64,000 nt of DNA from Escherichia coli (GCF_003991155.1 NZ_CP031293.1); one strand, 5' to 3'; shown: positions 4,273 through 61,690, counted from the first letter of the stretch. Notes: generated from the sequence alone by a model not told the origin. Made by a program: numbers and translations.

Positions 4273-5447
4273 TTTGTGGGTTCCATAATATTTTTCATGG
4301 GAGGATAAATTGAGCCAGATGGAATGGCCCAGGGAGTGATTTTGCTTTCACCTACTAATATTCCCTTAGCTATTCGTGATTGCATGTTAGTAAAAACTTT
4401 ATGATATGGTTCGTTTTCGATTAATACTAAATTTTCGAAATCATTAGTACCACCATCATCTAGAGATAGTTTATGGTGAACATTATAATTTAGAGGAACA
4501 TTGCCCTTTCTCATTCTTAAAAGGTCTTCGGCGTTGAATCTTCCAGATGCTTCGGAGGTTTTTGCAAGTTTGATAAGAAAATTTTTTCTTACAGTTTTAT
4601 TAAACTCCTTTCGTAAGTTAGCTAAGTCTTTTGAAGGTCTCTTAATGTATATTATTTCTATTATGTCTATACCATCAAGAAGTTTTTGTTGACCTCTAAG
4701 TTTGCCTAAGTAACTATTTATTTCTGTATATGTATCAACATTAGAACGCTTTGTTAAAAGAATAGATGCTGTTGCTATCGCTATGCCCGCTGTTTTTTCA
4801 TTTAGTATTTGATCATAGCCTTTTATTGCATCTCCACCCAGTTTTTCCGCAGTATCTCTGAATCCTTCAATGTTCCCATTGTATACGCCACCAGCAGCAA
4901 GTAGCCTGCCAATAGCTTTGCTGTTTAACGTTTTGAAACGATTATTTGTTTGGTTTTTTGAATTTGGTAAAAACAAACAGTTATAATTTTCAGGGAGTGC
5001 CAAATAGCTGAACTCGGTATTTGCGATAATCTGTTGACAGAGGATAAATTCATAACTAACAGTTATTGTTTCTGTATCCAGTTGATTTTCAATGATCTGA
5101 TGATGAATAGCCGATAAAAAAGCGCCTCTTAGTTGTATATAATAATACTTTTCCCATCTACCAAATCTATTTATTCGATAGAAGTCAAATCCCATAAATA
5201 ATTGTTCATTATTGTTAATGGAATTAATAAATAATGGAGTGCTTTTATCAATTAATTTACAAAATGTTATACCATGGAACTGTGAACCAAGCCCCGTATT
5301 AGTAATACTATTTAAGAGTGAGAATGTAAATATTTCATCCTCATGCCCGCTCTGCCAGCGATTACCTGTAGACTCAGAAGTCCCACAACCTGCGGAGATG
5401 CTTCCTTGTTGTTCTCCCGTTACTGTCAGGTAAACAATATTACTCAT
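4269..5447 (-). CDS. yhhZ: Hcp-family protein with a C-terminal HNH nuclease domain (Hcp extended-toxin type, YhhZ)
   Basis: 392 aa; the N-terminal ~160 aa look Hcp1-like (MSNIVYLTVTGEQQGSISAG...), and the C-terminus carries an HNH-like motif (NYNVHHKLSLDDGGTNDFENLVLIENEPYHKVF); markedly AT-rich compared with its neighbours. Confidence 0.8.
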   Translation of the reverse strand: MSNIVYLTVTGEQQGSISAGCGTSESTGNRWQSGHEDEIFTFSLLNSITNTGLGSQFHGITFCKLIDKSTPLFINSINNNEQLFMGFDFYRINRFGRWEKYYYIQLRGAFLSAIHHQIIENQLDTETITVSYEFILCQQIIANTEFSYLALPENYNCLFLPNSKNQTNNRFKTLNSKAIGRLLAAGGVYNGNIEGFRDTAEKLGGDAIKGYDQILNEKTAGIAIATASILLTKRSNVDTYTEINSYLGKLRGQQKLLDGIDIIEIIYIKRPSKDLANLRKEFNKTVRKNFLIKLAKTSEASGRFNAEDLLRMRKGNVPLNYNVHHKLSLDDGGTNDFENLVLIENEPYHKVFTNMQSRIAKGILVGESKITPWAIPSGSIYPPMKNIMEPTK

Positions 5448-5650
5448 CCCTGAAAAGTCCTTTTATGGCATGCTATTTTATTAATGGCACTATTATGCTT
5501 GTTAATTGTTATTTATTTACTCCAGGAAATTGTAGGCGTATATATTAATAATAAAATATTACACTTTAGGACGTAATTATGAGGTAAATCTCAATATATT
5601 TATTGGGCAAATAAATACATTAAAGGAAGATATGCCGATTTTGAATGACG

Positions 5651-5677
5651 CCCTTTTTCCATCTCAGAAAAAGGGCA
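5651..5677 (-). terminator. hairpin just downstream of yhhY
   Basis: Inverted repeat gcccttttt(c) ... gaaaaagggc lying directly 3' of the yhhY stop on the minus strand. Confidence 0.5.
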
Positions 5678-5682
5678 CTATC

Positions 5683-6171
5683 TTATTTCACCCGCGCCAT
5701 ATAATACGCATCGACATATTCACCATTACGTAATGCGTACTTCTTGCCAGTCCCTTCAATCTCAAAGCCGAATTTTTTATAGACCTTAATTGCTGGCGCG
5801 TTATCGACGAACACCGTTAGCTCGATACGATCTACCCGCAACCAGTTGTCGCACATATCAATCATTTCGCGCATCAGGGCGCTGGCGACGCCGCGGTTCT
5901 TCCAGCGAGAGTCGACACAGATACCAAAATCGGCAACATGACTGCGGCGCGGGCGTTGCTGTACATCAATGGTGAGATGACCTACTACGGTTCCATCAAT
6001 ACAGGCGACGAGTTGCTTGATGCCGGGGCGTTCGGCGAGTCGCTCCTGCCACATATAGTCTGAAGGATGAGGCACCTGTAGCGTGTTGTAATACACCTCC
6101 GGCTGGGCGTGAATCTGCCTGATGGCCTCGTAATCCCGTGTTTCTGCGTGGCGTATCACTATCTCACTCAT
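5683..6171 (-). CDS. yhhY: GNAT-family N-acetyltransferase YhhY
   Basis: 162-aa product from the ATG at 6171 (MSEIVIRHAETRDYEAIRQIH...) with an AGGAA ribosome-binding site; acetyltransferase fold motifs; the track's longer ORF is an N-terminal extension. Confidence 0.9.
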   Translation of the reverse strand: MSEIVIRHAETRDYEAIRQIHAQPEVYYNTLQVPHPSDYMWQERLAERPGIKQLVACIDGTVVGHLTIDVQQRPRRSHVADFGICVDSRWKNRGVASALMREMIDMCDNWLRVDRIELTVFVDNAPAIKVYKKFGFEIEGTGKKYALRNGEYVDAYYMARVK

Positions 6172-6255
6172 TCCTTTGTCCTCTTTGGGGTAAATGTCCC
6201 TTTCAACATCATTGACTTTCAAATGCGAGTCAAATGCATTTTTTTTGCAAAAAGT

Positions 6256-6293
6256 GTTGGACAAGTGCGAATGAGAATGATTATTATTGTCTT
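6256..6293 (+). promoter_or_regulatory. ryhB promoter with overlapping Fur box
   Basis: -35-like ttggac and -10-like tattat just upstream of the RyhB 5' end; the overlapping gaatgagaatgattattatt resembles the Fur consensus GATAATGATAATCATTATC. Confidence 0.7.
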
Positions 6294-6383
6294 GCGATCA
6301 GGAAGACCCTCGCGGAGAACCTGAAAGCACGACATTGCTCACATTGCTTCCAGTATTACTTAGCCAGCCGGGTGCTGGCTTTT
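6294..6383 (+). ncRNA. ryhB: RyhB small regulatory RNA (Fur-repressed, iron-sparing)
   Basis: Base-for-base match to the RyhB sequence as I recall it (GCGATCAGGAAGACCCTCGCGGAGAACCTGAAAGCACGACATTGCTCACATTGCTTCCAGTATTACTTAGCCAGCCGGGTGCTGGCTTTT), ending in a GC-rich hairpin and U-tract; sits between yhhY and yhhX as in K-12. Confidence 0.95.
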
Positions 6384-6505
6384 TTTTTGATCTTTCGTTT
6401 TCAAATTATCCACGGGAAGTGCTTGTGTTCGTTATGCGCACTCCAGTAGGAACCACGTCCGCTTTGCGCTAAGGTGTAAATAACCCCCTTAAAAAGGACG
6501 AAATC

Positions 6506-7543
6506 ATGGTCATCAACTGCGCCTTTATTGGCTTCGGCAAAAGCACCACCCGTTACCATCTGCCGTATGTACTTAACCGCAAGGATAGCTGGCATGTCGC
6601 GCATATTTTTCGCCGCCATGCGAAGCCGGAAGAACAGGCTCCCATTTACTCTCATATCCATTTCACCAGCGATCTCGACGAAGTGCTAAACGATCCCGAT
6701 GTTAAGCTGGTTGTCGTCTGCACCCACGCGGATAGCCATTTCGAATACGCGAAGCGCGCGCTGGAAGCCGGGAAAAATGTGCTGGTCGAAAAACCGTTCA
6801 CCCCGACGCTTGCCCAGGCGAAGGAGCTGTTTGAGTTGGCGAAAAGCAAAGGGCTGACCGTCACGCCGTATCAGAATCGTCGCTTTGATTCCTGCTTCCT
6901 GACGGCGAAAAAAGCGATTGAAAGCGGTAAGCTGGGAGAGATTGTTGAAGTGGAAAGCCATTTTGACTATTACCGCCCGGTGGCAGAAACCAAACCTGGG
7001 CTGCCGCAGGATGGCGCGTTCTATGGCCTTGGTGTGCATACCCTCGACCAGATTATCTCGCTGTTCGGTCGCCCGGATCACGTCGCTTATGACATCCGCA
7101 GCCTGCGTAATAAAGCCAATCCTGACGACACCTTCGAAGCGCAGCTGTTTTATGGCGATCTAAAAGCCATCGTCAAAACCAGCCATCTGGTGAAAATCGA
7201 TTATCCGAAATTTATCGTTCACGGTAAGAAAGGTTCGTTTATTAAATACGGTATCGACCAGCAGGAAACCAGCCTGAAGGCTAATATTATGCCGGGCGAA
7301 CCGGGATTCGCAGCGGATGATTCGGTCGGTGTGCTGGAGTATGTCAATGACGAGGGCGTGACGGTCAGAGAAGAGATGAAGCCGGAGGTGGGCGATTACG
7401 GGCGCGTTTATGATGCGTTGCATCAAACCATCACCAACGGTGCGCCAAATTACGTCAAGGAATCTGAAGTTCTTACCAATCTGGAAATCCTTGAACGCGG
7501 TTTTGAGCAAGCTTCTCCCTCCACAGTGACTCTCGCGAAGTAA
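6506..7543 (+). CDS. yhhX: Gfo/Idh/MocA-family oxidoreductase YhhX
   Basis: 345-aa ORF with an N-terminal Rossmann dinucleotide-binding motif (AFIGFGKSTTRYHLP). Confidence 0.9.
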   Translation: MVINCAFIGFGKSTTRYHLPYVLNRKDSWHVAHIFRRHAKPEEQAPIYSHIHFTSDLDEVLNDPDVKLVVVCTHADSHFEYAKRALEAGKNVLVEKPFTPTLAQAKELFELAKSKGLTVTPYQNRRFDSCFLTAKKAIESGKLGEIVEVESHFDYYRPVAETKPGLPQDGAFYGLGVHTLDQIISLFGRPDHVAYDIRSLRNKANPDDTFEAQLFYGDLKAIVKTSHLVKIDYPKFIVHGKKGSFIKYGIDQQETSLKANIMPGEPGFAADDSVGVLEYVNDEGVTVREEMKPEVGDYGRVYDALHQTITNGAPNYVKESEVLTNLEILERGFEQASPSTVTLAK

Positions 7544-7550
7544 GTTTGAT

Positions 7551-7589
7551 GACCCCTCGAATAGTTCAATTTTTTTGAACAGAGGGGTC
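7551..7589 (+). terminator. yhhX terminator hairpin
   Basis: Inverted repeat gacccctc ... gaggggtc followed by aatttt, directly after the yhhX stop. Confidence 0.6.
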
Positions 7590-7665
7590 AATTTTCACCC
7601 TCTATCATCCCAGGCTGATCGGGTCCACACTAAGCCCATCGAAATCATTCAGGGGGCGAATACAA

Positions 7666-8361
7666 ATGATCTACTTACGCAAAGCAAATGAACGTGGTCA
7701 TGCAAATCATGGCTGGCTGGACTCCTGGCATACTTTCTCTTTTGCCAACTACTACGACCCGAACTTTATGGGTTTCTCCGCGCTGCGCGTGATTAACGAC
7801 GACGTGATTGAAGCAGGGCAGGGCTTTGGCACTCACCCGCATAAAGATATGGAAATTTTGACCTACGTGCTGGAAGGTACTGTTGAGCACCAGGACAGCA
7901 TGGGCAATAAAGAGCAGGTTCCGGCGGGTGAGTTCCAGATTATGAGTGCGGGTACGGGTATCCGTCACTCTGAGTACAACCCAAGCAGCACCGAGCGTCT
8001 GCATCTGTATCAAATCTGGATCATGCCGGAAGAAAACGGCATCACGCCTCGCTATGAGCAGCGCCGTTTCGATGCCGTACAGGGCAAACAGCTGGTGCTC
8101 TCGCCGGATGCGCGAGATGGTTCGCTGAAAGTGCATCAGGATATGGAACTGTATCGTTGGGCATTGCTGAAAGATGAGCAGTCGGTGCATCAGATTGCCG
8201 CTGAACGCCGCGTCTGGATCCAGGTGGTGAAAGGCAATGTCACCATTAACGGCGTGAAAGCCTCGACCAGCGATGGTCTGGCAATCTGGGATGAGCAGGC
8301 AATCTCCATTCATGCGGATAGCGACAGCGAAGTGTTACTGTTCGATCTGCCGCCGGTTTAA
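7666..8361 (+). CDS. yhhW: pirin-like protein / quercetin 2,3-dioxygenase YhhW
   Basis: 231-aa cupin protein with the metal-binding HPH...E motif (GFGTHPHKDMEILTYVLEG). Confidence 0.9.
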   Translation: MIYLRKANERGHANHGWLDSWHTFSFANYYDPNFMGFSALRVINDDVIEAGQGFGTHPHKDMEILTYVLEGTVEHQDSMGNKEQVPAGEFQIMSAGTGIRHSEYNPSSTERLHLYQIWIMPEENGITPRYEQRRFDAVQGKQLVLSPDARDGSLKVHQDMELYRWALLKDEQSVHQIAAERRVWIQVVKGNVTINGVKASTSDGLAIWDEQAISIHADSDSEVLLFDLPPV

Positions 8362-56802: not shown

Positions 56803-58871
<2,069 letters not shown>

Positions 58872-58876
58872 ATAAA

Positions 58877-58904
58877 ACGGGAGGTGAAGGTGCCTCCCGT
58901 TTTT
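58877..58904. terminator. envZ terminator, shared with the convergent antitoxin gene
   Basis: acgggagg tgaaggtg cctcccgt followed by TTTT; the minus-strand antitoxin stop codon (58903-58905) abuts the T-run. Confidence 0.7.
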
Positions 58905-59199
58905 AGATTGTTTTCAATTGATTGATAATGAAAGGATTCGCTTGCAAAAGCAGGAGCAATTTTCGGGGTGCTCCGGTAGGCTGACGGCGTTTGGTTTCCC
59001 AGCTTTTGACCAGGTCATAACTTACCCCTACGGCGACAGCAAAATCTTGCTGACGTAAACCCGTTGCTTCACGGATCGCTTTTACATCGATTTCGCTAAA
59101 AGTATGGACGTGCTCTGGTTCTGGCGTTTCTTCACCCTTTTCGATGCGTACCATTTCTTCTGCGCTGGCAAGAAGATCAGCAAATAATTCATCTTTCAT
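58903..59199 (-). CDS. HigA-like antitoxin (XRE-type helix-turn-helix DNA-binding protein)
   Basis: 98 aa; helix-turn-helix segment (IREATGLRQQDFAVAVGVSYDLVKSWETKRRQPTGAPRKLL) typical of HigA/NadS-type antitoxins; 58 bp downstream of the toxin gene on the same strand. Confidence 0.75.
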   Translation of the reverse strand: MKDELFADLLASAEEMVRIEKGEETPEPEHVHTFSEIDVKAIREATGLRQQDFAVAVGVSYDLVKSWETKRRQPTGAPRKLLLLLQANPFIINQLKTI

Positions 59200-59257
59200 C
59201 TGTTTTCAATGCCTCCGTTGACATTTCGGCCATGGTGGAATTTGTGGAGCTTCAACA

Positions 59258-59575
59258 TTAAAGCAGCTTCTCGGACAATAGTTTCAATGCCTTTCTTTGT
59301 TCTTCTGTTAAATCATCCTGTTCATTTTTAGGATAAATCAACGCCAGATAAATTCGGCCATTGCGTGTTACGTTGTAATAAATTATCCGAATGCCACCCC
59401 GTTTCCCCATTCCAGAACGGTTCCAGCGAATTTTTCTAAAACTGCCTGTGCCTGCGATAATGTCACCGGCAGTGGGATCTTGAATGAGTAGTTCCTGAAA
59501 AGCCCGGAACTCATCATCAGGTAGCAATAACTGGCGGCGTTTGCTAAATCCTTGTAGTTCAATAAAGGTGAACAT
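59258..59575 (-). CDS. HigB-like toxin (RelE/ParE superfamily mRNA interferase)
   Basis: 105 aa with the GTG-x-R-K-I-R ... G-K-R-G-G-x-R-I-I-Y-Y ... L-x-x-I-Y-x-K-N-E motif (GSFRKIRWNRSGMGKRGGIRIIYY, LALIYPKNEQDDLT) that I associate with Vibrio-type HigB toxins; toxin-first gene order is characteristic of HigBA. Absent from the K-12 envZ-pckA junction as I recall it. Confidence 0.75.
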   Translation of the reverse strand: MFTFIELQGFSKRRQLLLPDDEFRAFQELLIQDPTAGDIIAGTGSFRKIRWNRSGMGKRGGIRIIYYNVTRNGRIYLALIYPKNEQDDLTEEQRKALKLLSEKLL

Positions 59576-59639
59576 AATGCATCCTGCGGTCTATTGATAA
59601 TTATAAGTGTACCGTGTACATATTGGTAGCTAATTAGAT

Positions 59640-59670
59640 AAAAAAACCCCTTATCCGTTTGGATAAGGGG
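59640..59670 (-). terminator. pckA terminator
   Basis: Hairpin ccccttatcc gttt ggataagggg preceded on the plus strand by A7 (a U-tract on the minus-strand transcript). Confidence 0.75.
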
Positions 59671-59689
59671 TCAATGAGATATCAGCTGA

Positions 59690-61312
59690 TTACAGCTTAG
59701 GACCTGCCGCTACCAGCGCGGCACCCGCAGGGGTGTCGGTGTATTTATCAAAGTTGTCGATAAACAGTTTCGCCAGGGTTTCGGCTTTTTCCTGCCACTG
59801 TTCCGGGGAAGCGTAGGTGTTACGCGGATCGAGGATCTTCGTGTCTACGCCCGGCAGTTCGGTTGGGATCGCCAGGTTAAACATCGGCAGAGTGAAGGTT
59901 TCTGCGTTATCCAGCGAACCGTTGAGGATGGCGTCGATAATGGCGCGGGTATCTTTAATCGAGATACGTTTGCCAGTGCCGTTCCAGCCGGTGTTAACCA
60001 GATACGCCTGCGCGCCTGCCGCCTGCATACGTTTCACCAGCACTTCTGCGTACTGAGTTGGGTGCAGCGACAGGAATGCCGCGCCGAAGCAGGCGGAGAA
60101 GGTTGGCGTCGGTTCGGTGATGCCGCGCTCTGTACCAGCCAGTTTGGCGGTGAAGCCAGAGAGGAAGTGGTACTGGGTTTGATCGGCAGTCAGACGAGAA
60201 ACCGGCGGCAGCACGCCGAAAGCATCAGCAGTCAGGAAGATAACCTTAGTTGCGTGGCCCGCTTTGGACACCGGCTTAACGATGTTTTCAATGTGATAGA
60301 TAGGATAAGAAACGCGGGTGTTCTCGGTTTTTGAACCATCATCAAAGTCGATAGAACCATCTTCACGCACGGTGACGTTTTCCAGCAGCGCATCACGACG
60401 GATAGCGTTGTAGATTTCAGGTTCCGCTTCTTTCGACAGCTTGATAGTTTTTGCGTAGCAGCCGCCTTCAAAGTTAAACACGCCGTCATCGTCCCAGCCG
60501 TGTTCGTCATCGCCAATCAGGCGACGTTTCGGGTCGGTGGAAAGGGTGGTTTTACCGGTGCCGGAAAGGCCGAAGAACACCGCAACATCGCCTTTCTCAC
60601 CAACGTTGGCGGAGCAGTGCATAGAAGCGATACCTTTCAGCGGCAGCAGGTAGTTCATCATTGAGAACATCCCTTTCTTCATTTCGCCGCCGTACCAGGT
60701 GCCGCCAATCAGCTGCATGCGCTCGGTCAGGTTAAACGCCACGAAGTTTTCGGAGTTCAGACCCTGTTCTTTCCACTGCGGGTTAGTGCACTTCGCGCCG
60801 TTCATAACGATAAAGTCTGGTTTGAAACCTGCCAGCTCTTCATCGCTCGGGCGAATAAACATGTTTTTGACAAAATGCGCCTGCCAGGCCACTTCGGTGA
60901 TGAAACGGACGGAAAGACGAGTATCCGGGTTCGCACCACAGAAAGCGTCGACAACGAACAGACGTTTGCCGGAAAGCTGTTTGGTCACCAGGCCTTTAAG
61001 ATGCTGCCAGGTTTCCGGAGAGAGAGGTTTGTTGTCGTTCTTACCTTTGCCTTTGTCTGCCCACCAGAAAGTATCGCGAGTGGTATCGTCACGGACGATA
61101 TACTTATCTTTTGGTGAACGACCGGTGAAGATCCCGGTATCGACGGCAACGGCACCCAGATTAGTTAACACCCCGCGCTCATAACCTGTCAGGCTCGGAT
61201 CGAGCTCTTCCTGATACAGCAGGTCGTAGCTTGGGTTGTAAACGATATCATGTACGTCACTGATACCATAAGCCTCGAGTTCTTGCGGGGTCAAACCATT
61301 GTTAACGCGCAT
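59690..61312 (-). CDS. pckA: phosphoenolpyruvate carboxykinase (ATP)
   Basis: 540 aa starting [20 protein letters not shown] with the kinase P-loop ([11 protein letters not shown]); the track's ORF is 23 codons longer. Confidence 0.95.
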
Positions 61313-61690
61313 TTCACTGCTCCTTAGCCAATATGTATTGCCTGAATAGTAAAGTCTTTTTGGGGGTGTTAACCGCGACAAGGCTCATAGATTTACGTAT
61401 CTGGAGAAATTCATATTTGACAAAAAACTCCGTGATTCCTGTCACGAAACGGTTGCTATTATCGCAGAAATAGCATTTTAGGTGTGGAAAATGTTCTCAA
61501 AAGGTTAAATCTTGGTTTATATGGCGGGAATATTGTGAGTGGAATCGCATTCCTGAATGAAATTGATGCAAATTCAATCGGTAAAGTATCGATTCACCAC
61601 GCTAACTTTTTTTGATTATTTTCTGAAAAAAGCAAAATACTACGGCCTGGATGCGATAATTAACCCACTTTTTGATTCTGGATAACTAAC

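Follow-up and report, generated by a model that had tools for sequence, protein, structure and literature searches.

A predicted HigB-2/NadS toxin-antitoxin operon carried as an accessory cassette between envZ and pckA of Escherichia coli

The DNA analysed here, referred to as the window, is a 64,000-nucleotide stretch from Escherichia coli (NZ_CP031293.1) that contains ompR-envZ and, facing envZ, the convergent pckA gene. Two small reading frames, encoding proteins of 105 and 98 amino acids, lie on the minus strand between these two housekeeping genes, and both the coordinates (Table 1) and a comparison with K-12, where the site carries no gene, agree with the original prediction on this point. 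In K-12 MG1655, the annotated coding regions of envZ and pckA are separated by a geneless interval of 75 bp, 44 bp of which form a spacer running from the envZ terminator to the pckA stop codon. At the left end of the variable segment, identity with K-12 spans the stem of the envZ terminator and stops within its T-run, at 58903/58904, as seen in the alignment, and at the right end it returns inside the last codons of pckA, with synonymous changes relative to K-12 up to about position 59705. When the window was aligned with both K-12 and Escherichia albertii, the window and E. albertii proved to have synonymous differences from K-12 at the end of pckA in common. The GC content of the segment between these edges is 41-44%, compared with 52-59% in the flanks.

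Table 1. Features of the envZ-pckA region in the window (positions counted from its first nucleotide; TA, toxin-antitoxin)
Feature	Position	Strand	Remark
envZ	57519-58871	plus	convergent with pckA; ompR-envZ in the window
Bidirectional hairpin terminator	58874-58903	plus (envZ) and minus (TA operon)	common to envZ and the TA operon; same sequence as in K-12
Antitoxin ORF	58903-59199	minus	98 aa
Variable cassette	58904-59689	minus	786 bp, in place of the 44-bp spacer of K-12
Spacer, toxin stop to antitoxin start	59200-59257	minus	58 nt
Toxin ORF	59258-59575	minus	105 aa
Toxin Shine-Dalgarno sequence	59582-59585	minus	AGGA, 6 nt before the ATG
Probable operon promoter	59600-59628	minus	from comparative alignment of upstream regions
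Putative antitoxin operator	59608-59620		palindrome TGTAC-N3-GTACA, between -35 and -10
Intrinsic pckA terminator	59645-59672	minus	cassette-borne; sequence unrelated to K-12
pckA	59690-61312	minus	RefSeq start

The segment had been described as an insertion, a description that has to be revised: the K-12 spacer is absent from the window and is unrelated to what stands in its place, and on sequence comparison the cassette is a replacement allele for that spacer rather than a clean insertion. When the K-12 spacer is aligned with the cassette, the score is 16 against a mean of 16.3 for shuffled sequences, that is, there is no similarity beyond chance, and since no remnant is left either, the K-12 spacer can be ruled out as a deletion scar of the cassette. 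A search for direct repeats bounding 58904-59689 found none, and with no bounding repeats and no further open reading frame in the cassette, there is no indication of a transposon, an insertion sequence or a site-specific insertion.

The 105-amino-acid protein is closely related to HigB-2 of Vibrio cholerae. Residues 3-100 align without gaps, over 98 residues, to PDB chains of V. cholerae HigB-2 (E 1.3e-23) at an identity of about 47-49%, and a scan against Pfam-A returned a modest match to PF06296 (‘PF_RelE’; E 1e-5, residues 44-104). This was the sole Pfam-A family returned, the classical HigB families PF05015 and PF09907 being unmatched, and the NCBIfam models gave no match to the toxin. 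In a survey of the superfamily, PF06296 is treated as the HigB-2 family, separate from the HigB families PF05015 and PF09907 (PMC11980606). The designation ‘HigB-type’ in the original prediction therefore stands as far as the RelE superfamily is concerned, whereas the family within it is HigB-2 and not classical HigB. The motifs on which that designation was based are present, as G57-K-R-G-G-I-R63-I-I-Y-Y67 and Y81-P-K83-N-E85. Four residues in this region and just upstream of it, R50, R63, Y81 and K83, are the equivalents of R51, R64, Y82 and K84 of V. cholerae HigB-2 and are invariant in an alignment of 20 sequences that includes the V. cholerae protein; an alanine at any one of these V. cholerae positions reduced activity 170- to 3000-fold (PMC5416850). 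Residues 64-67 correspond to the IIYY sliding strand, which in V. cholerae HigB-2 shifts its register upon antitoxin binding and thereby inactivates the toxin.

An AlphaFold2 model of the toxin, built on the same 20-sequence alignment, has a mean pLDDT of 89.5 and a pTM of 0.82. When this model was compared with the PDB using Foldseek, the top 11 matches were all HigB-2 (TM 0.76-0.87, rmsd 1.3-2.9), toxins of the RelE family came next, and superposition on the best HigB-2 crystal structures gave TM values of 0.82-0.87. By analogy with its relatives, the protein is thus predicted to be a member of the HigB-2 family and a ribosome-dependent mRNA endonuclease. The public annotation is similar: RefSeq lists the protein (WP_000493756.1) as a ‘type II toxin-antitoxin system RelE/ParE family toxin’, and its UniRef name is ‘Toxin HigB-2’.

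The 98-amino-acid protein scores 75.1 bits, against a cut-off of 60, on the NCBIfam model NF041265 (NadS family; residues 5-96), and an XRE-type helix-turn-helix is recognized at residues ~39-76 (Pfam HTH_31 and HTH_3). Its single sequence matches HigA-2 in the PDB at E 4.9e-5, and a profile of 20 homologues matches at E 3e-10 over the full length (positions 3-94 against 3-99), with the N-terminal stretch (DELFADLL...) aligned to the toxin-neutralizing tail of HigA-2. On these sequence matches the antitoxin belongs to the HigA-2/NadS family, and it is deposited in RefSeq under the gene name nadS (WP_000650976.1). The profile searches that had been suggested for the two proteins thus returned PF06296 and NadS, a RelE/HigB-2 fold is predicted with confidence for the toxin, and profile, PDB and fold matches all bear out a type II pair with a RelE-superfamily toxin encoded before an XRE antitoxin. 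PRK10072 came up as the second NCBIfam match of the antitoxin, below its cut-off; a connection of this model with K-12 YddM was considered and dropped, as K-12 YddM has no similarity to the antitoxin. A blastn search with the antitoxin gene (11-base words) found no second NadS-like gene in E. coli, a search that distant paralogues could escape. We did not find the source of the name NadS in the literature, where the only mention encountered was of an unstudied nadS in K-12 BW25113.

The regulatory signals of the operon are best read by comparison with related loci. A CAGG(A/G) sequence is kept at the position of the toxin Shine-Dalgarno sequence in 21 aligned upstream regions, and a GGAGG (59212-59216) lies 12 nt before the antitoxin ATG; in strains 55989 and Nissle it reads GGAGA. 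In relatives, the toxin and antitoxin genes lie -4 to 85 nt apart. The probable promoter, assigned from the aligned upstream sequences, combines a perfect -10 box (TATAAT, 59605-59600 on the minus strand) with a poor -35 box (TACCAA, 59628-59623) in place of the TTGATT or TTGAAT of most relatives; a consensus promoter scan returned no minus-strand promoter, the -35 box falling below its threshold. Between the two boxes lies the palindrome that we propose as the antitoxin operator. Its core, GTAC-N3-GTAC, is present a single time in the 64-kb window, compared with 0.32 expected occurrences. Of the 32 loci compared, 30 have the motif no more than ~100 nt ahead of the toxin start, the two exceptions being the empty site of K-12 and a decayed copy in Pseudomonas; no related locus that retains the cassette lacks it in front of the toxin gene. 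Two copies spaced by about 30 bp are found in most loci, and a single copy in all pckA-envZ loci. In V. cholerae, the HigA-2 operator was footprinted as TGTACGC-N5-GCGTACA, extending from after the -35 box across the -10 box (PMC11006873). Three of the four base-contacting residues differ between the two antitoxins (D62, K65, S66 and R71 here versus R68, E71, N72 and R77 in V. cholerae HigA-2), so that DNA recognition cannot simply be transferred from the V. cholerae protein. Autorepression through the TGTAC-N3-GTACA box is probable from the conservation and position of the motif, and the combination of a poor -35 box with one operator copy instead of two suggests that expression of the cassettes at pckA-envZ may be low.

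A terminator scan picked up both hairpins of the region. The hairpin shared by envZ and the toxin-antitoxin operon folds with -19.1 kcal/mol on the plus strand and -17.8 kcal/mol on the minus strand (z -4.9 and -6.9, respectively), and the stop codon of the antitoxin gene (58903-58905) shares positions with the T-run of this hairpin (58900-58904), in line with the original description. The terminator of pckA is a hairpin of -20.4 kcal/mol followed by U7 (z -4.8); it is absent from K-12, present in the Citrobacter and Kluyvera cassettes, and stands between pckA transcription and the promoter of the toxin-antitoxin operon. The view that both flanking terminators had been left intact consequently holds for envZ, the terminator of which is that of K-12, and not for pckA, the hairpin of which came with the cassette and is unlike K-12; transcription of K-12 pckA presumably ends at the bidirectional hairpin that it has in common with envZ. 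A search against Rfam yielded nothing above threshold, and the sub-threshold matches fell on the terminator hairpin only.

Comparison of the envZ-pckA junction across E. coli, which had been proposed as a check, demonstrated that the cassette genes are accessory and not core. The cassette is present in 1330 of 5426 complete E. coli genomes (24.5%), always on the chromosome and in a single copy, and all copies for which the context was inspected lie between envZ and pckA. Carriers include 55989, E2348/69, IAI39 and Nissle 1917, and each of the two exact protein sequences is found on at least 1000 contigs. Apparent remnants of the cassette in two further strains were discarded: the match in HS-02 is homopolymer-rich assembly junk of no biological meaning, and that in BS-04, which is equally short, is assumed to be the same. 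In our literature search, no experimental work on the E. coli HigB-2/NadS copy came up.

In a scan of other species, covering one genome per species, the pair was also found between pckA and envZ in E. albertii, Citrobacter gillenii, Citrobacter portucalensis and Kluyvera ascorbata; in Kluyvera sichuanensis the site is occupied as well, with the toxin gene cut to a stump. Elsewhere on the chromosome, the pair is present in Klebsiella, Leclercia, Enterobacter, Budvicia, Yersinia, Photorhabdus and marine gammaproteobacteria. In total, it recurs as a unit in 29 loci of other species and plasmids, with the toxin gene first in all 29. Homologues of the toxin are encoded on 900 plasmid records, 306 of them from Acinetobacter, and are paired with nadS on both plasmids inspected (Yersinia ruckeri pYR4 and Klebsiella variicola pKP91). 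Both proteins of E. albertii are 100% identical to those of the window, and the cassettes are 98.3-99.3% identical, compared with about 93% for pckA and envZ; this closer relationship of the cassette than of its flanks suggests that the two species exchanged it recently. For Citrobacter and Kluyvera the values are 73-82% for the cassette genes and 82-89% for the flanks, which is compatible with an ancient residence at this site and also with its opposite.

Both genes bear signs of selection. The dN/dS ratio is ~0.05 for each, a rough value given that synonymous sites are saturated (dS >1.5), and for the toxin this ratio shows, within the precision of such an estimate, continuing purifying selection. 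The non-synonymous rate of the antitoxin is about half that of the toxin (dN ~0.05-0.08 versus 0.13), and amino-acid identities among Enterobacterales are 85-95% for the antitoxin and 69-83% for the toxin. The toxin is frameshifted or truncated beside an intact antitoxin in five of the 29 loci from other species, and a broken antitoxin beside an intact toxin was never seen among these 29. A similar state is found within E. coli: the toxin gene of Nissle 1917, a pseudogene in RefSeq, is interrupted by a stop at codon 22, the antitoxin protein of this strain is identical to that of the window, and a 7-bp deletion takes half of the palindrome and shortens the promoter spacer. Nissle-type alleles account for ~106-108 of 1329 E. 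coli carriers (~8%), and the remaining ~92% are without these lesions; the window has the intact form, with a full-length toxin and all catalytic residues. Decay that strikes the toxin first is the pattern predicted for an active pair whose toxin does harm when the antitoxin is missing, and thus lends indirect support to toxicity.

The closest characterized system is HigB-2/HigA-2 of V. cholerae (VCA0468-0469; PDB 5JA8, 5JA9, 5JAA, 5J9I and 8A0X). The two operons have the toxin-first order in common, the toxins agree in fold, in the IIYY strand and in all four catalytic residues, and the antitoxins, although only distantly similar (single-sequence E 5e-5), share a layout in which a toxin-binding tail at the N terminus precedes an XRE helix-turn-helix at the C terminus. 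The putative operator described here has the TGTAC half-site and the promoter position of the V. cholerae operator, and differs from it in the spacing between the TGTAC pentamers, which is 3 nt here and 9 nt in V. cholerae. The V. cholerae higB-2 gene sits in the superintegron, in contrast to the fixed site between core genes described here. V. cholerae HigB-2 has been described as chromosomal (PMC5416850). A second member of the same family, HigBA2 of the Acinetobacter baumannii plasmid pAB120, has a toxin less than 60% identical to the one described here and was reported to stabilize its plasmid, to degrade RNA, to form a tight complex and to repress its own operon with the toxin acting as co-repressor (PMC5906591). 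It can serve as a functional model for the E. coli pair, except that it is plasmid-borne whereas the E. coli pair is a single chromosomal copy, a site at which plasmid stabilization is not relevant.

More distant systems have some of these properties in common. Classical HigB/HigA pairs, such as those of plasmid Rts1 of Proteus vulgaris and K-12 HigB/YgjN, are also toxin-first, with a toxin of the RelE superfamily that works at the A site of the ribosome and an antitoxin of the XRE type, but their toxins belong to other Pfam families, and the fold matches of K-12 and Shigella HigB to the toxin model are weak (TM 0.37-0.56). K-12 RelE matches the model with a Foldseek probability of 1.00 and a TM of ~0.57-0.59 at an identity of ~11-16%; the relE/relB gene order is antitoxin-first, opposite to that of the pair described here. 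The RelB antitoxin has a ribbon-helix-helix fold, as opposed to the helix-turn-helix of the HigA-2/NadS protein. HigB-2 is structurally nearer to RelE than to Rts1 HigB (PMC5416850, PMC11980606), and its active-site geometry and expected mechanism are RelE-like (PMC5416850).

Taken together, the cassette probably carries an intact, working and autorepressed type II toxin-antitoxin operon, a chromosomal member of the HigB-2/HigA-2 family with a mechanism assigned by homology. In the proposed model, transcription of the minus strand would pass from the promoter-operator region through the toxin and antitoxin genes to the terminator shared with envZ. The toxin would enter the ribosomal A site and cleave mRNA under translation by means of R50, R63, Y81 and K83, as proposed from V. 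cholerae HigB-2, and would be neutralized when the N-terminal tail of the antitoxin folds onto it; in V. cholerae, neutralization shifts the IIYY strand, and the arginine that corresponds to R63 flips out of the active site. A dimer of the C-terminal helix-turn-helix domain of the antitoxin would bind TGTAC-N3-GTACA between the -35 and -10 boxes and so repress the operon. For the E. coli pair, toxicity, ribosome dependence, the mode of neutralization and DNA binding are read across from relatives, which have been found experimentally to be toxic, RNA-cleaving and autorepressed (PMC5416850; PMC5906591). At the level of populations, the behaviour of the cassette is that of a selfish or accessory element, which stays at a single chromosomal site, passes from one Escherichia species to another and, when it decays, loses the toxin first.

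The greater conservation of the antitoxin among Enterobacterales, and the orphan intact antitoxins beside broken toxins in five species and in the Nissle-type allele, lend themselves to another reading, namely that the locus is a domesticated or decaying remnant in which NadS is the selected part, either as a regulator or as an anti-addiction antitoxin against plasmid-encoded HigB-2, and in which the toxin is weakly expressed or near loss. The degenerate -35 box and the single operator at pckA-envZ cassettes would fit such a state, as would the frequent occurrence of HigB-2 homologues on enterobacterial plasmids. We regard this reading as unlikely, however, because the window toxin is complete in length and in catalytic residues, is found as the same protein on at least 1000 contigs and has a dN/dS indicative of ongoing purifying selection, because about 92% of E. 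coli carriers are free of Nissle-type lesions, and because the Nissle deletion also removes part of the operator and promoter spacer, which suggests decay of the whole operon rather than an antitoxin kept for use. A related proposal, tentative and rather improbable in our view, is that NadS is the long-lived selected component, kept as an orphan to act as a wider regulator or as chromosomal anti-addiction immunity against plasmid HigB-2, and that pckA-envZ is an old cassette site common to several genera, with repeated loss and interspecies replacement.

A role primarily in phage abortive infection, mentioned as a possibility in the original prediction, found no support and is very improbable. 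Some type II toxin-antitoxin systems do defend against phage (PMC11980606), both proteins match phage-encoded families without assigned function (phrog_5869, E 1e-33, and phrog_2104, E 8e-28), and toxin homologues occur in nine phage records. Yet PADLOC-DB 2.0 contained no system match, with nothing for the toxin and for the antitoxin a generic helix-turn-helix model and a weak match to RmrA (E 0.0013), the cassette stands alone between two housekeeping genes and outside any defence island, and no phage-sensing component is evident. The notion that the two genes are reading frames open by chance, or non-coding DNA annotated in error, for which their small size and low GC content are the sole arguments, is refuted by the strong matches to solved structures, the pairing in 29 loci and the preservation of the proteins in spite of saturated synonymous sites, and has practically no probability left.

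With the working HigB-2/HigA-2 operon as the preferred reading, the finding matters little beyond correct annotation: structure, catalysis, neutralization and operator binding are known from work on V. cholerae and A. baumannii; the family, structure, mechanism and annotation of this exact pair are already public in RefSeq and UniRef. The label ‘HigB-like’ should read HigB-2, a Pfam family other than that of K-12 HigB. As a clean presence/absence polymorphism, found in 24.5% of genomes as a single chromosomal copy, the cassette could act as a lineage marker, and naturally inactivated alleles such as that of Nissle 1917 are ready-made controls for tests of function. The TGTAC-N3-GTACA box is a specific and testable prediction of the antitoxin binding site, with a spacing unlike that of the one solved example. 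This conserved operator variant, a cassette site common to several genera and the persistence of orphan antitoxins are the mildly interesting aspects of the locus.

In 5 of 29 loci, all five listed below, an intact antitoxin gene sits next to a toxin gene that carries a frameshift or is truncated, and the antitoxins encoded next to these broken toxins retain 61–94% identity to that of the window; the reverse arrangement, a broken antitoxin with an intact toxin, was found in 0 of the 29. A toxin-null allele is also found within E. coli, where it is common to about 8% of cassette carriers and is exemplified by Nissle 1917. Compared with the window, this Nissle-type allele carries a premature stop at codon 22 of the toxin gene as well as a 7-bp deletion; the deletion takes away half of the putative operator palindrome and leaves a shorter promoter spacer, and the allele encodes an antitoxin protein identical to the window antitoxin.

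Coordinates of the features compared, in each related locus and in the window
Feature	Locus and source	Position in locus	Position in window
Nissle-type allele	L034, E. coli Nissle 1917 (NZ_CM189243.1)	653-1035	59258-59640
Broken-toxin locus	L027, Photorhabdus bodei		
Broken-toxin locus	L028, Enterobacteriaceae bacterium B14		
Broken-toxin locus	L029, Photobacterium ganghwense		
Broken-toxin locus	L030, Phytobacter ursingii		
Broken-toxin locus	L032, Kluyvera sichuanensis		
Homopolymer-rich region	L033, E. coli HS-02 (NZ_CP172818.1)	1013-1546	
Accessory DNA adjoining the cassette	L006, E. albertii NBRC 107761 (NZ_BBMY01000013.1)	4700-7790	
Mechanical pckA ORF	window		59690-61381
RefSeq pckA ATG	window		61312

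Among the related loci L003-L026, the GTAC-N3-GTAC box is present twice in most family members, the two copies lying about 30 bp from each other in the region roughly 40–85 nt 5' of the toxin start. In such two-box loci, one box lies at or over the -35 element and the other within the spacer. The upstream box and the consensus -35 have both been lost from every pckA-envZ cassette, and the pckA terminator occupies their place. On the pckA side, the mechanical ORF (563 aa) begins at a TTG 23 codons upstream of the RefSeq ATG (540 aa), a difference that is without consequence for the toxin-antitoxin finding.

In E. coli HS-02, homopolymer-rich nonsense sequence, annotated as a 177-aa 'hypothetical protein', separates pckA from envZ; it looks like an artefact of sequencing or assembly across the cassette, not a biological remnant of it, and strain BS-04 probably carries the same artefact. 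PLSDB files as plasmids two records whose matches should be left out of plasmid-borne counts: LR134122.1 (Klebsiella aerogenes 'plasmid 2', 568 kb) has the core chromosomal genes era, recO, pdxJ and acpS, and NZ_OL790696.1 (E. coli, 4.8 Mb) is chromosome-sized.

K-12 BW25113 (NZ_CP009273) is reported to have an unstudied NadS-family gene, nadS (locus tag RS26030), which is expressed during laboratory growth (PMC12350097). Since K-12 lacks the cassette, this gene may be an orphan paralogue; it was undetected by blastn with 11-base words and the window antitoxin gene as query.

In E. albertii NBRC 107761, accessory DNA adjoins the same toxin-antitoxin cassette. Beside the cassette lie a duplicated and frameshifted envZ 3' fragment (residues 371–450) and short fragments resembling pckA. 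Additional ORFs, about 2.7 kb in all, precede the real envZ, and one of them may encode an SMI1/KNR4-type immunity protein. The pckA-envZ junction appears to be a place where accessory DNA repeatedly inserts.
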